Assembly (NCBI GenBank): GCA_002787405.1 | Contig: PCWQ01000014.1 | Location: 1 to 54,850 of the forward strand | DNA from: Candidatus Komeilibacteria bacterium CG11_big_fil_rev_8_21_14_0_20_36_20 | Lineage (GTDB): Bacteria; Patescibacteriota; Patescibacteriia; UBA1558; GWA2-36-10 | DNA length: 54,850 nt | Reading direction: 5' to 3' | Shown here: positions 5,059 to 50,209 of the stretch, piece after piece | Layout of the letters: each line of letters opens with the position of its first letter | How positions within the stretch are numbered: the stretch's first letter is position 1 | Translations under genes and position numbers: made by a program | The notes under the pieces: model-generated | What the model saw: the letters and a program-made list of their open reading frames with translations, nothing else | What the model was told of the DNA's origin: nothing | The model's database searches: none

Positions 5059-5141
5059 ATCCCGTTAGAAATTCCCGAATTTTAGCGGGTGCATAAATTA
5101 AATTTTATTTAATTAGTTGTTACTATAATTTCTAACGGGAT
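5059..5141. repeat. MITE-like element with 15-bp perfect inverted repeats
   Basis: ATCCCGTTAGAAATT (5059-5073) and AATTTCTAACGGGAT (5127-5141); second copy at 31971-32040. Confidence 0.8.
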
Positions 5142-6750
5142 GAAACAAACAAAATTTATTTTTATAACTGGAGGAGTTTGTTCCGGCTTGGGCAAAGGAA
5201 TTGCTTCAGCATCAGTCGGAGCGATTTTAAGGGCCTCTGGTTATTCTGTTTTTACTTTAAAATTAGATCCTTATTTAAATGTTGATCCGGGAACCATGAG
5301 CCCTTATCAGCACGGCGAAGTTTATGTTACTGATGACGGAGCAGAAACTGATTTAGATTTAGGTCATTATGAAAGATTTATTGACACTAATTTATCAGAA
5401 TTGTCTAATTTAACCACCGGGCAGATTTATGAAAAAGTTTTAAAAGGTGAGCGTGCTGGGCATTATTTAGGAAAAACAATTCAAATTATTCCTCATATTA
5501 CTGATGAAATTAAAAATTATATTAAAAAGGCGGCGGTTGAAAGTAAAGCGGATTTTTTATTGTTAGAATTAGGAGGTACGGTTGGTGATATTGAAGGCGA
5601 ACCATATCTGGAAGCAGCTCGTCAGTTCCAACGGGAAGTTGGCCGAGAAAATGTGATGTTGATTCATTTGACTTTATTGCCGTTCCTGAAGGCATCCAGC
5701 GAATTAAAAACCAAACCCACACAAGCGTCAGTCAGGGAGTTATACCGCCGTGGTTTGCAGCCGGATATTATTTTAGCTCGTAGTGATAAAAAATTAACCA
5801 AAGAAGTAATTAGTAAAATTGCTCTCTTTGCCGATGTCAAGGAAGAGGCGGTGATTCCGGCCCAGACCGTCAAAACTATCTATGAAGTTCCTTTGTCTTT
5901 TGAGAAAAAGTATAAAATTTCCAGAATTATTTTTAATCGTTTGAATTTGCCGACCAGAAAACCAAAACTTGATGAATGGGAGAAGTTTATTAAGAAAATT
6001 AAAAGTACTAAGAAAAAATTGTCTATTGCCTTAGTTGGCAAATACAATGAAAATATTGACGCTTATATTAGTGTGGTGGAAGCCATTAAGTCAGCTTGTT
6101 ATCACAATAATGTTGATTTAAATTTGGTTTGGGTTAGTTCAATTAAATTGGAGAAGAAAGATAAAGCAGAGTTAAGAAAATTAGATAAAGTTGCTGGTAT
6201 TGTCGTGCCGGGTGGTTTTGGCTATCGGGGTATTGAAGGTAAAATTATGGCCGCTAAATATGCCCGCGAGCATAAGAAGCCATATCTGGGCTTATGTTTG
6301 GGTATGCAAGTGGCTACAATTGAATTTACCAGGCATGTGTTAAATACTAAAGATGTCAATTCTACTGAATTTGATCCCAAGACTGCTAATCCGGTTATTC
6401 ATATCTTGCCGGGGCATACTGCAGATGAAGATAAGGGTGGTACTTTAAGATTAGGCGCCTATCCTTGTGTCTTGGATAAAAATTCCCTTAGCTACAAAGC
6501 ATATGGGCAGCCCAAAATAGAGGAAAGACACCGCCATCGCTATGAATTTAATATGGATTATTATCAGCCATTGGAAGAAGCAGGCATGCGTTTTGCCGGA
6601 CTTTCACCGAATAAAAAATTAGTGGAAATCATTGAATTAAGAGACCATCCGTTTTTTGTCGCTTCTCAATTTCATCCGGAATTCAAATCTCGGCCACTTA
6701 GACCCCATCCATTATTTAGAGATTTTATTAAAGCCAGTTTGAAAGTTTAG
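5140..6750 (+). CDS. pyrG: CTP synthase
   Basis: TGGVCSGLGKG, DPYLNVDPGTMSP, GATase motifs LCLGMQ and QFHPEF. Confidence 0.98.
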   Translation: MKQTKFIFITGGVCSGLGKGIASASVGAILRASGYSVFTLKLDPYLNVDPGTMSPYQHGEVYVTDDGAETDLDLGHYERFIDTNLSELSNLTTGQIYEKVLKGERAGHYLGKTIQIIPHITDEIKNYIKKAAVESKADFLLLELGGTVGDIEGEPYLEAARQFQREVGRENVMLIHLTLLPFLKASSELKTKPTQASVRELYRRGLQPDIILARSDKKLTKEVISKIALFADVKEEAVIPAQTVKTIYEVPLSFEKKYKISRIIFNRLNLPTRKPKLDEWEKFIKKIKSTKKKLSIALVGKYNENIDAYISVVEAIKSACYHNNVDLNLVWVSSIKLEKKDKAELRKLDKVAGIVVPGGFGYRGIEGKIMAAKYAREHKKPYLGLCLGMQVATIEFTRHVLNTKDVNSTEFDPKTANPVIHILPGHTADEDKGGTLRLGAYPCVLDKNSLSYKAYGQPKIEERHRHRYEFNMDYYQPLEEAGMRFAGLSPNKKLVEIIELRDHPFFVASQFHPEFKSRPLRPHPLFRDFIKASLKV

Positions 6751-6754
6751 AGAT

Positions 6755-6792
6755 AATAAAATAACCCCTTTTCTAAAGGGGTATTTATTTTT
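6755..6792 (+). terminator. pyrG terminator
   Basis: ACCCCTTT/AAAGGGGT hairpin followed by a T-rich tract. Confidence 0.75.
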
Positions 6793-6797
6793 AATAA

Positions 6798-6987
6798 AAA
6801 TAAAAAGGGATCAGCCGAAGCCAATCCCTATGGGTGCCTGCATATTTTATGGAGGCAGTATTATAAGGCTCGGTGTCTTATTTACAGACACCATTTGCTT
6901 GGGTAGAGGGGGGCTGGAACTACCCGAAGCGGGGAGGCATTTGTGTAAGAGCACCGAACCATTTTAATTTAATCAAAGGACTGTTAC
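6798..6987 (-). ncRNA. Candidate structured small RNA (6S-like rod, hairpin and UUCG terminator)
   Basis: TTGACA-17-TAAGAT promoter at 7022-6994; stems 6946-6960/6867-6880 and 6920-6930/6897-6906; terminator AGGGAUUGGC-UUCG-GCUGAUCCCU-UUUU; G-U pairs fit only the minus strand. Confidence 0.6.
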
Positions 6988-7135
6988 TTGAGTATCTTAT
7001 ATTATTTTTAAATAGATGTCAACCACTTTAGAGGATTTACCTCTAACGGAGTCAGGTTTTTAAAAACTTGCTTCTAATAAATTTTAATAATATAATCTAG
7101 TTGAAAATAAAAGTACTTTACAAAGGAGATAGAAA

Positions 7136-8548
7136 GTGAAAAAAACACTAATGTTTGTTGTCCTCTTCGGCCTCTTAATTACTAATTTAAGTTGGGCTGA
7201 TTGGCCAATGTTTCAGAGAGATACTCGACATACTGGTCGGGCCAATATTATAGCCGCTCAAACCAATAATCTGAAATGGCAGCTTGATTTAGGAGTGAAT
7301 ATTTCACCCTATGGCGGACCTAGTGTGGGCCTGTATAATGGTTCTCGACGCATTGTGGTAGGAACTGATGATGGCGTTTACGTCATTGATACTAGTGGTT
7401 TTATTTTTGAGCATATTTCTACCGGTTTCCCTGTAGAGACAGTGGTGGCTATTTACAATAATACTCTTTACTTCGGAGCTGGTGATACTCTCTATGCTTA
7501 TCAGCCAAGTGGGCTATATTGGAGTCAACCCTTAGACGATAATGATCTTACTCATGTCACTATTCAGGGTGACACAATTTATGTCTGCGACGAAGATCGG
7601 CTCTGGTCGTTTAGCTTAAGTGGCGATTTTTACTGGATGAGTGACAACTTGAGCGGCAATATCATCTATGCCGCTCCAGCTGTAGACCAAGAAGGTAATG
7701 TTTATGTGGTTAGTAGTCAGGCCCTTTGGGACGACTATGTGCTCTATGCTTATCGTTCAAACGGCAATTTATGGTGGTCTTATGACTACCTTGCCTTTGA
7801 AGGAAATGGAGTGCAGATGACGCCTACTCTTGATAGAGAAGGTAATGTTTATCTGGCTACCTATTGGTCCAGTTTTTGGCCCAGTAGCATCCAGTCACTC
7901 AAAGATGGCGATCGCAATTGGAAACATAGTGCAGAAGCGTTGCATTCCTCGCCAGCTTATCATAACGGGGTGATCTATTACGGCACCACTGAAGGACTAG
8001 AAGCGCGTTCTTCTGACGGAACTCTACTTTGGGCCTATTATACGCCGAGCGCTGTTAAATATTCCTCACCGGCTATTGGTAGAGATGGAACTATTTATAT
8101 TGGCACTGAAGGAGGTAGATTTTTAGCCATTACTAATAGCGGCGGTGCTAAATGGAGTTCAGATGTTTTGCAGTCGGCTGCTAGTTCACCAGCGATTGAT
8201 GAAAATGGCGTGGTTTATGTGGCGGCCGGACAATCTTTATTTGCCTTTGCCGATTCTACAACCGATTTGCCACCTGACAATAGTAATCTAGCTGCTCCCA
8301 CTCATATTTTTATTTATCCCAATCCTTTTAATTCATCTGCTAAGATCAGTTATTATCTTACTGAAGCAGGATGGGTAAAAATAGACTTATATGATATTAG
8401 GGGGAGTCACATCAAAGCTTTAGCTAACCAGCCACAAGACAAAGGTCAACATCAGGTTTCTTTATCCGGTTTAAGTAGCGGGATTTACTTTGTTCGTTTC
8501 AAGACTAATAATTATTCGCATACCAAGCGGGCAACAGTGATTAAGTGA
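7136..8548 (+). CDS. Secreted PQQ/BamB-type beta-propeller with T9SS/FlgD-like C-terminal Ig domain
   Basis: Signal peptide, WPMFQRD.RHTGR start, repeated SSPAI..DG blades, tail YPNPFN...LSSGIYFVR; SD AAGGAG before a GTG start. Confidence 0.85.
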   Translation: MKKTLMFVVLFGLLITNLSWADWPMFQRDTRHTGRANIIAAQTNNLKWQLDLGVNISPYGGPSVGLYNGSRRIVVGTDDGVYVIDTSGFIFEHISTGFPVETVVAIYNNTLYFGAGDTLYAYQPSGLYWSQPLDDNDLTHVTIQGDTIYVCDEDRLWSFSLSGDFYWMSDNLSGNIIYAAPAVDQEGNVYVVSSQALWDDYVLYAYRSNGNLWWSYDYLAFEGNGVQMTPTLDREGNVYLATYWSSFWPSSIQSLKDGDRNWKHSAEALHSSPAYHNGVIYYGTTEGLEARSSDGTLLWAYYTPSAVKYSSPAIGRDGTIYIGTEGGRFLAITNSGGAKWSSDVLQSAASSPAIDENGVVYVAAGQSLFAFADSTTDLPPDNSNLAAPTHIFIYPNPFNSSAKISYYLTEAGWVKIDLYDIRGSHIKALANQPQDKGQHQVSLSGLSSGIYFVRFKTNNYSHTKRATVIK

Positions 8549-8680: not shown

Positions 8681-8754
8681 TCGGGGATCGTCTAATGGTA
8701 GGACACCTGGTTTTGGTCCAGGCAATCGGGGTTCGAGCCCCTGTCCCCGAGCCA
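8681..8754 (+). tRNA. tRNA-Gln(TTG)
   Basis: Acceptor TCGGGGA/TCCCCGA, anticodon arm CCTGG-TTTTGGT-CCAGG, GTTCGA T-loop, encoded CCA. Confidence 0.96.
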
Positions 8755-15876: not shown

Positions 15877-15879
15877 AAT

Positions 15880-15976
15880 ATACCCCTCTGTCCTGCGCCT
15901 GCCTGCCGGCAGACAGGAACATCTCCCCCTAATTTAGGGGGAGAAAAACCCGGCAAATGCCGGGTAGAGGGGGTAT
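15880..15976. repeat. Palindromic element (ACCCCTC...CTCCCCCT/AGGGGGAG...GGGGTA) with nested CCTGCCTGCCGGCAG repeat
   Basis: Terminal inverted arms; same family as 18684-18765. Confidence 0.75.
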
Positions 15977-16003
15977 GAAATAGAATTTATAATAAAAAAA
16001 CAA

Positions 16004-18689: not shown

Positions 18690-18765
18690 TACCCCCTCTA
18701 AATCCGCCTAACAGCGAATTTTTTCTCCCCCTTGATAAGGGGGAGATATAGTGGGGGTATTATTT
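18684..18765. repeat. Palindromic element, same family as 15880-15976
   Basis: AAATAATACCCCC...GGGGGTATTATTT arms with internal CTCCCCCTT/AAGGGGGAG hairpin. Confidence 0.75.
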
Positions 18766-31564: not shown

Positions 31565-31957
31565 AAAGGCTTAAATTGATTGAGATGATCGCTTTGATGT
31601 AAAAATCGGAGAGGAAAGTCCGAACACCTTAAAAAGAGTAGTTGGTAACACCAACCGTTTTAGATAGCAATATCTAAAACAGGACAAGTACAACAGAAAA
31701 TATTCCTATTCCGCTTTGCGGGGTTAAGGGTGAAATGATTAGCTAATAAGCTAATCCGTTCTGTTGGTGACAACAGAAATGAGGCAAACTCTACTTGGTG
31801 CAACTTTGAGTAGGCCGAGCTCAGTCAAGCTTAGCTTGATCAGTTCGGCGGGTTGAAGGCTTGATCTTGACGGCAACGTCAAGACTAGATAGATGATCGT
31901 CGCCCTTGCTTAGCAAGGGAACAGAATTCGGCTTATGATATCAATTTAGGCCTTTTT
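31565..31957 (+). ncRNA. rnpB: RNase P RNA
   Basis: GAGGAAAGTCCGAACAC and AACAGAATTCGGCTTA P4 signatures; ends pair (AAAAGGCTTAAATTGAT/ATCAATTTAGGCCTTTT); TTGACA promoter at 31531. Confidence 0.93.
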
Positions 31958-50015: not shown

Positions 50016-50150
50016 ATGAAACATTTTGTTTATATTTTAATCAGTCAAAAAAGATCTAATTGGTCATATGAACGTGAAATTTATTTAAAATCCGGAATAG
50101 GTCGAGAAGAAAAAGACAAAATTATTAAAAAATATTTCGGGATCGTCTAA
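50016..50150 (+). pseudogene. Internally deleted GIY-YIG nuclease (44 aa)
   Basis: MKHFVYILISQKRSNWSY joined directly to EREIYLKSGIGRE; stop codon lies inside the tRNA. Confidence 0.7.
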
Positions 50151-50209
50151 TGGTAGGACATCAGGTTCTGGTCCTGAGAATCTAGGTTCGAGTCCTAGTC
50201 CCGAAGCCA
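50136..50209 (+). tRNA. tRNA-Gln(CTG)
   Basis: Acceptor TTCGGGA/TCCCGAA, anticodon arm TCAGG-TTCTGGT-CCTGA, GTTCGA, CCA. Confidence 0.96.

Follow-up and report, generated by a model that had tools for sequence, protein, structure and literature searches.

What, if anything, is transcribed from the minus strand between pyrG (5140-6750, plus strand) and a gene for a beta-propeller protein with a Por_Secre_tail domain (7136-8548, plus strand) in this Komeilibacteria genome? A preliminary description of the window, by which we mean the whole 54,850-nt stretch of DNA that was analysed, proposed a stand-alone structured RNA and offered two identities for it: a shrunken 6S RNA with a miniature 6S-like switch, or a new class of small RNA (sRNA). 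It is the second option that stands, because the RNA has no match in Rfam 15 and a covarying set of relatives was found. We consider it very likely that the window RNA is a member of this family of hairpin sRNAs with a C-rich loop, most members of which come from another phylum. The paragraphs below deal with the gene and its fold, with the identities that can be set aside, with the family, and with what the window copy may be doing in its present genome.

The locus is a stand-alone sRNA gene of ~190 nt on the minus strand, with expression predicted from the sequence signals in Table 1. The TTGACA-17-TAAGAT promoter, the second hairpin, and the UUCG terminator followed by its T-run are all present as first described, and no gene follows downstream. 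Taken by itself, the promoter match is not significant (2 promoter-like sites versus 2.7 ± 1.4 expected), whereas terminator-like sites are enriched (6 versus 0.9 ± 0.9 expected). The minus strand over 6985-6790 (196 nt) has a folding energy of -65.8 kcal/mol, compared with -40 on average for shuffled sequences (z -5.85), and none of 200 shuffles is as good; for the plus strand the z score is -2.94, and one shuffle in 200 does as well. The locus also forms a G+C island, reaching 0.51 in a genome of 35.5% G+C.

The gene is present in a single copy in this 0.98-Mb, 97%-complete genome. Contigs from two other sequencing runs extend from the end of pyrG through the RNA into the following gene without a single difference, and the locus is therefore not an assembly chimera. 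Across four public runs the contigs over the locus likewise show no differences, although the runs and the source sample may not be independent of each other. A perfect palindrome separates the sRNA promoter from the divergent beta-propeller gene; it may be an operator, perhaps one shared with that gene. Just past pyrG there is, in addition, a hairpin at 6764-6782 flanked by T-runs on both strands, probably serving as the terminator of pyrG and as a back-up to that of the sRNA.

Table 1. Positions of the features discussed in the text, in window coordinates unless another contig of the same genome (C16, C21) is given. R2 is a covariance model of the family.
Feature	Position	Strand	Description and basis
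Promoter-like site, sigma-70-type	7022-6994	minus	TTGACA (7022-7017), 17 nt, TAAGAT (6999-6994); 10 of 12 consensus matches
Predicted transcription start	near 6987-6985	minus	placed from the -10 hexamer
Predicted 5' leader	6986-6963	minus	~24 nt, A/U-rich, not G+C-rich; from the position of the -10 hexamer and the fold
Main rod-shaped hairpin	6960-6867	minus	~95 nt; predicted fold and R2 match 6952-6867
Closing helix	6960-6946 with 6880-6867	minus	14 bp, bulged C: GGUUCGGUG-C-UCUUA with UAAGACACCGAGCC
Inner pairs of the rod		minus	ACA/UGU and AUGCC/GGUGU; predicted fold
Internal loop		minus	UCCCC/AAAU; predicted fold
Conserved family module (internal loop, apical helix, loop)	6937-6890	minus	42 of 48 positions shared with locus L074
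Apical helix	6930-6920 with 6906-6897	minus	10 bp, bulged C: GCUU-C-GGGUAG with CUACCCAAGC
Apical loop	6919-6907	minus	UUCCAGCCCCCCU, 13 nt; proposed seed/recognition element
Alternative hairpin	6892-6872	minus	GGUGUCU/AGACACC; mutually exclusive with the closed rod
Second hairpin	6857-6835	minus	UGCCUCCAUAAAAUAUGCAGGCA; holds a further CCUCC; window-specific, absent from homologues
Terminator, intrinsic, separate	hairpin 6829-6806, T-run to 6796	minus	10-bp stem, UUCG loop
Perfect palindrome	7029-7047		TTAGAGG-TAAAT-CCTCTAA (7-5-7), 6 nt upstream of the -35 hexamer; sequence reading
Palindromic elements between convergent genes	15877-15985; 18692-18743; C16:6816-6898; C16:47473-47521; C21:8539-8623		two in the window, three elsewhere in the same genome

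The predicted fold is dominated by a rod whose 14-bp closing stem and 10-bp apical stem with a C-rich loop agree with the initial drawing. The central region between them does have the lengths given for it (15 nt in the 5' strand and 16 nt in the 3' strand), but it is not an open bubble: the strands AUGCC/GGUGU are paired at P 0.96-0.999, the minimum-energy fold adds ACA/UGU, and an internal loop of only 5/4 nt is predicted to remain. Similarly, the alternative 3' hairpin on which the proposed switch depended can be drawn, but the state that contains it is 6 kcal/mol less stable than the closed rod (-29.5 versus -35.5 kcal/mol; equilibrium P ~1e-4), and of the 37 family sequences the window copy is the only one that can form it.

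These results bear directly on the reading of the locus as a miniature 6S-like RNA, that is, an open-promoter mimic that binds RNA polymerase and is switched to the 3' hairpin by pRNA synthesis. In 6S RNA, a rod of ~150-200 nt, long helices enclose a large central bubble that is open. The window RNA resembles it (RF00013) in that its fold is rod-like, with an internal loop, and its gene stands alone; a 3' hairpin can be drawn for it, and no canonical 6S RNA is detected in this genome. Yet the rod of ~95 nt (75-90 nt in the family form) is half the size of 6S RNA or less; the strands of the supposed bubble are paired at P>0.96, and their equivalents pair in the homologues too; the internal loops of the homologues are small and vary in both length and sequence; and the conserved part is the apical loop, the opposite of what is seen in 6S RNAs. 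No 6S model matches the RNA either, and we regard a 6S-like function as extremely improbable. A 6S-like drawing made from a single sequence can thus mislead, even where the call of a structured RNA is itself right.

The searches against known families were as follows. At the gathering score, Rfam 15 gave no match for the window sRNA; at E<=10 there were 11 weak, unrelated matches at the locus, with 6S not among them. Across the whole genome, in which tmRNA and RNase P RNA were both detected, RF00013 had 0 matches at E<=10; in a control search the same 6S model found matches in 7 of 14 named genomes. A full-text search joining 6S RNA and the Candidate Phyla Radiation (CPR) returned no paper. 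An identity as signal recognition particle (SRP) RNA was also considered, and dropped: the bacterial models RF00169 and RF01854 had 0 matches at E<=10 in the genome, the locus included, and the RNA is missing the GNAR-loop/helix-8 motif expected of SRP RNA. A divergent SRP RNA may be hidden elsewhere in the genome. Among other RNA genes, a class A RNase P RNA lies at 31573-31951 (222 bits), and two tRNA genes lie at 8681-8751 and 50136-50206.

There remains the question of whether the locus encodes a small protein instead. An open reading frame of 26 codons does exist at 6962-6882, but no Shine-Dalgarno sequence precedes it, and it is not conserved: the ATG reading frames of the homologues run to just 0-6 codons, and the homologues carry 1- and 2-nt indels and compensatory pair changes. 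We see next to no chance that this frame is the product of the gene.

Finding the relatives of this RNA depended on the apical part of the rod. A BLAST search with the 188-nt RNA against 60 relatives of the organism returned short chance matches only, and a single-sequence covariance model (R1, 6964-6836) found nothing at E<=1 in any of 38 genomes of the organism's taxonomic family. In the 21 of 30 pyrG loci in which the region downstream of pyrG was searched, the best R1 score was 14.3 bits (E 0.58), so that these 21 loci lack a syntenic homologue after pyrG. Contigs of another organism, on the other hand, match just 6890-6937, with 6 differences over 48 positions, and a string flanking this match placed it at a locus (L074) in a Zixibacteria MAG. 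The 13-nt loop is identical in the two RNAs; of the six differences, two are double changes, from G-C to A-U, within the apical helix, and the basal helix of L074 keeps its pairing in a sequence unlike that of the window.

A pattern based on the loop then identified 11 metagenome loci, which comprise 8 distinct true members, two duplicates (L076 of L074, and L084 of L079), and one chance match. The last, L082, lies at the end of a contig of 60% G+C and was dropped as a member. A second covariance model, R2, was built from 10 sequences, the window copy among them. It scores the window copy at 6952-6867 with 58.7 bits (E 4.9e-11), which is a score on a training sequence; the next best match in the same genome reaches 18.6 bits (E 0.67). 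In the phylum that holds the Zixibacteria MAG (hereafter the home phylum), R2 finds matches at E<=1e-3 in 59 of 151 genomes, and the motif was present in all of the best 30 loci (at least 40.7 bits) when these were read. In the window's own phylum, none of 150 other genomes had a match. BLAST with the 70-nt core gave the same picture, with 0 of 85 genomes of the order and 2 of 400 genomes of the class, both of these matches being inside coding sequence without a hairpin and thus not real. Phage records gave terminator-like chance matches only (E 0.2-0.6), and two loop patterns found 0 viral contigs. We know of no described regulatory RNAs in the home phylum, and full-text searching on Zixibacteria combined with small RNA or RNA motif turned up nothing relevant.

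What do the members of this family have in common? They are hairpin RNAs of 75-90 nt, with a basal helix RGGGUG.../...CACCCUY directly followed by a U-run, so that the helix doubles as a terminator. The internal loop is variable; its 5' side is often CCUCCUC, but the CCUCC is not kept in every subfamily. Above it comes a second helix of ~10 bp, often interrupted by a bulge or a 1x1 mismatch; the top of this helix, GGGUAG/CUACCC, is almost constant. The apical loop, UUCC(U)AGCCCCCCU, is near-invariant: UUCCAGCCCCCCU occurs in 19 of 37 sequences, UUCCUAGCCCCCCU in 11, and UUCUAGCCCCCCU in 3, with four single variants, two of which were taken from the alignment. The GCCCCCCU at the end of the loop is identical in all 37 sequences, window included, and a loop ending in it on a GGGUAG/CUACCC helix is found at 6925-6901 of the window as in every sequence of the alignment (A5, 37 distinct sequences). 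Part of this invariance is ascertainment, since the pattern that supplied 10 of the 37 sequences demands the loop and R2 was trained on these 10; the copies found by the model nevertheless vary at the 5' end of the loop and never in GCCCCCCU.

The structure is supported by covariation, which the preliminary description had named as a check and for which 36 homologues were available. In A5, 87.9% of the cells are paired, against 34-51% when the partners are slid; double changes occur in 16 of 21 pairs, against a shuffle mean of 8.6; and the covariation score was reached by none of 500 shuffles. These values should be read with the knowledge that fitting A5 to the structure of the model favours pairing, and that the sequences of A5 are related. 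The strand of the RNA was assigned because the paired columns hold more G-U than A-C cells (36 versus 16), R2 scores are far higher in sense (41-98 bits) than in antisense (14-31 bits), and promoters are conserved on the assigned strand.

The promoters fall into two types. A TTGAC[AT] followed by a -10 hexamer precedes 17 of the 22 copies that are not beside a regulator gene, window included (16 of 21 homologues), and a box TAGGGT-N5-6-ACCCTA abutting a TTGC-type -35 precedes 14 of the 15 regulator-adjacent copies, none of which has TTGACA; the regular expressions for both were written after the data were seen. The regulator-adjacent copies lie 96-184 nt downstream of a response regulator. Nine of nine tested upstream reading frames chosen as regulator candidates have Response_reg and GerE domains, and a shorter tenth candidate, upstream of L091, matches GerE only; at L111 the upstream frame is a PCMT methyltransferase instead of a regulator. 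Further upstream, both of the two frames tested have HisKA_3 and HATPase_c domains. Two loci carry tandem copies of the RNA (L081, at 1470-1557 and 1677-1764, and likewise L092), each copy with its own box-type promoter; in the second copy the loop is 12 nt long and the apical helix shows a compensatory change from G-C to A-U. We infer that in the home phylum the family RNA is probably the output of a two-component system made up of a HisKA_3 kinase and a NarL-type regulator. The family thus comes with a likely dedicated two-component system and an operator box, which makes for a directly testable circuit.

The neighbourhood of the other subfamily is different. In subfamily 1, a convergent reading frame of ~350 aa ends in or beside the 3' end of the RNA at 20 of 23 loci, from -36 to +66 nt in 18 of them and past a second RNA copy in the other two. 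Of two such frames tested for domains, one gave a PHP match, a weak one. Subfamily-2 copies have no convergent frame.

How might such an RNA act? By analogy with known sRNAs, we lean tentatively, and with somewhat less than even confidence, towards a base-pairing regulator that uses its C-rich loop as a seed on G-rich, Shine-Dalgarno-like sites in mRNA. In the home phylum, the two-component system would act through the palindromic box, with the RNA as its dedicated output, and the RNA would then act in trans through the exposed loop. In the window copy, the CCUCC-containing internal loop could serve as an additional seed. Pairing of these seeds with G-rich, Shine-Dalgarno-like stretches would block initiation or alter the stability of the mRNA, as may be compared with the CU-rich loops of RsaE and LhrC. 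The RNA is, in other words, a new family of a known kind, that of the C-rich-loop sRNAs, with an action presumed to be in trans.

Two published systems are the nearest in kind. In RsaE, a conserved unpaired C-rich motif (UCCC) binds the ribosome-binding region of the targets (PMC2790875). The RsaE/RoxS group of UCCC-motif sRNAs in Staphylococcus and Bacillus shares with the present family a C-rich unpaired motif that is conserved far beyond the rest of the molecule (PMC2790875), but it is an unrelated family in unrelated phyla, the motif here is longer (GCCCCCCU in a loop of 13-14 nt), and the likeness is functional only. LhrC1-5 of Listeria monocytogenes have CU-rich sites, depend on LisRK, are multicopy with some in tandem, and act through mRNA pairing that blocks translation (PMC4132741). 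They share with the family a short stand-alone form, exposed C- or CU-rich sites, a link to a two-component system, and several or tandem copies (PMC4132741). There is no sequence or model similarity to LhrC; the system here consists of a NarL-type regulator and a HisKA_3 kinase, and the RNA is one long hairpin that doubles as a terminator. Neither for the window copy nor for two typical family members did Rfam give a matching family, and no homology to RsaE or LhrC was found.

A search for targets gave little to go on. Loci of ~3 kb around family members showed no complementary site that recurs close to start codons (the most promising one is inside a ferredoxin-like coding sequence), and the ribosome-binding sites of the regulators themselves are not complementary to the RNA. 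An exact 11-nt complement, sought in five home-phylum genomes, was found in four only as the antisense of the gene itself and in the fifth not at all. That no conserved mRNA complement was found in the loci and genomes scanned speaks for a different mode of action, in which the loop and the GGGUAG/CUACCC helix are a decoy that titrates a conserved RNA-binding protein. The invariance of an 8-nt stretch and the 6 bp below it across two subfamilies would suit recognition by a protein, and so would the wiring. RsmY and RsmZ titrate RsmA (CsrA/RsmA) downstream of GacS/GacA, and the family has the same arrangement: a response regulator of the NarL family, a palindromic box upstream, and a dedicated sRNA gene that is the main output. 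The Rsm RNAs, however, carry many GGA loops, as sponges usually carry many binding modules, whereas each RNA of this family has a single C-rich loop; no GGA of the Csr/Rsm-type sponge was found in any loop. In addition, no candidate gene for such a protein is linked to the RNA in the loci read, and a decoy in the window's genome would call for the partner protein there too. We hold a decoy to be unlikely, if the most serious of the competing modes of action.

The convergent frames of subfamily 1 suggest yet another role, that of a cis-antisense RNA or a bidirectional terminator for the 3' end of the convergent gene's mRNA. The 20 of 23 loci with this arrangement are what commends it, but it would leave subfamily 2 unaccounted for. 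In the window, both neighbours lie on the other strand from the RNA and pyrG has its own terminator at 6764-6782. A terminator, moreover, needs neither an invariant 13-nt loop nor a conserved promoter, and we think this role very improbable. Base pairing in trans by the C-rich loop is the account that we carry forward.

Where, then, does the window copy stand within the family? Its core is closest to L091 (88.9% identity) and L074 (86.7%), both of the box-promoter subgroup. Its basal part is its own: where the family has the RGGGUG/CACCCUY helix, it has AUGCC/GGUGU, ACA/UGU and the 14-bp helix, and in place of the built-in terminator there is a separate one 40 nt further on. Counting this terminator, it has two extra hairpins, together with a sigma-70-type promoter, and the usual neighbours of the family (the convergent ~350-aa frame, or the kinase and NarL-type regulator) are missing. 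A profile search for the regulator in the window's genome found three receiver-only reading frames and no NarL-type regulator with a helix-turn-helix domain. The palindrome upstream of the promoter resembles the family box TAGGGT-N-ACCCTA in style, yet does not match it. The copy appears to have been rebuilt, with the apical module kept, the basal helix swapped, and the terminator made separate.

Since the family is found in 58 of 150 genomes of the phylum of the Zixibacteria MAG and in 0 of 150 of the window's phylum, lateral acquisition is the simplest account of the window gene. We think it probable that the gene, now a single copy in an ultra-small CPR-type genome from groundwater, was acquired in this way, the direction of transfer being read from the distribution alone. 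A joint arrival of the RNA and the neighbouring Por_Secre_tail gene was considered and rejected, as the best full-length relative of that protein is in the window's own order (43% identity, versus 34% over a partial length in the other phylum).

A transferred gene need not be a working one, and the window copy could be a neutral or decaying relic of a family that is functional in Zixibacteria. It is, after all, a lone copy among the 150 relatives sampled with the model and the 485 sampled with BLAST, and the basal helix, the neighbours, and the cognate regulator of the family are all missing. Against this, the intact, consensus-like promoter, the added terminator, and the longer and very stable helix have the look of rebuilding and not of decay. 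Identity to the nearest relatives still stands at 87-89% in the apical module, two of whose six differences from L074 are compensatory, and the contigs of the four runs, which may not be independent of the source, agree over the locus. A relic therefore seems to us rather improbable. For the whole combination, a rebuilt and laterally acquired family sRNA that acts through its C-rich loop, we would put the chances at about even. The locus is, on that account, a candidate case of an sRNA gene that crossed phyla into a CPR genome and was rebuilt around its seed, and the retention of the seed alone points to the part of the RNA that carries the function.

One further set of sequences in this genome touches on the seed. 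The palindromic elements between convergent genes (Table 1) have an outer helix CCCCCUCU(A)/(U)AGAGGGGG that closes three hairpins, giving a four-way junction with an GGGUAGAGGGGG arm. The element at 15877-15985 folds in this way on both strands (z ~-7.5), and Rfam had no match for these elements at the gathering score. A 12-mer, GGGTAGAGGGGG, is the complement of the sRNA over the 3' part of its loop and the 3' strand of its apical helix. The window's genome has five copies of this 12-mer, one as the antisense of the sRNA gene and four in the palindromic elements, whereas 38 other genomes of the taxonomic family have one between them. This link could be due to chance, to shared sequence ancestry, or to a target relation. 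One might go on to imagine a CPR-type, ultra-small, and probably episymbiotic cell that captured the signalling sRNA of another phylum, with the seed on its new scaffold acting either on the regulon of a Zixibacteria-like host or on the cell's own transcripts, the four elements among them; we mention this as a long shot, to which we attach very little weight.

Finally, the neighbouring gene deserves a comment of its own. The protein of 7136-8548 is a secreted-type beta-propeller with a Por_Secre_tail, a sorting domain of type IX secretion, in a phylum of ultra-small genomes. At E<=1e-10, this C-terminal domain is shared by 22 of 85 further genomes from the order, where most of the matches are ~80 aa long.
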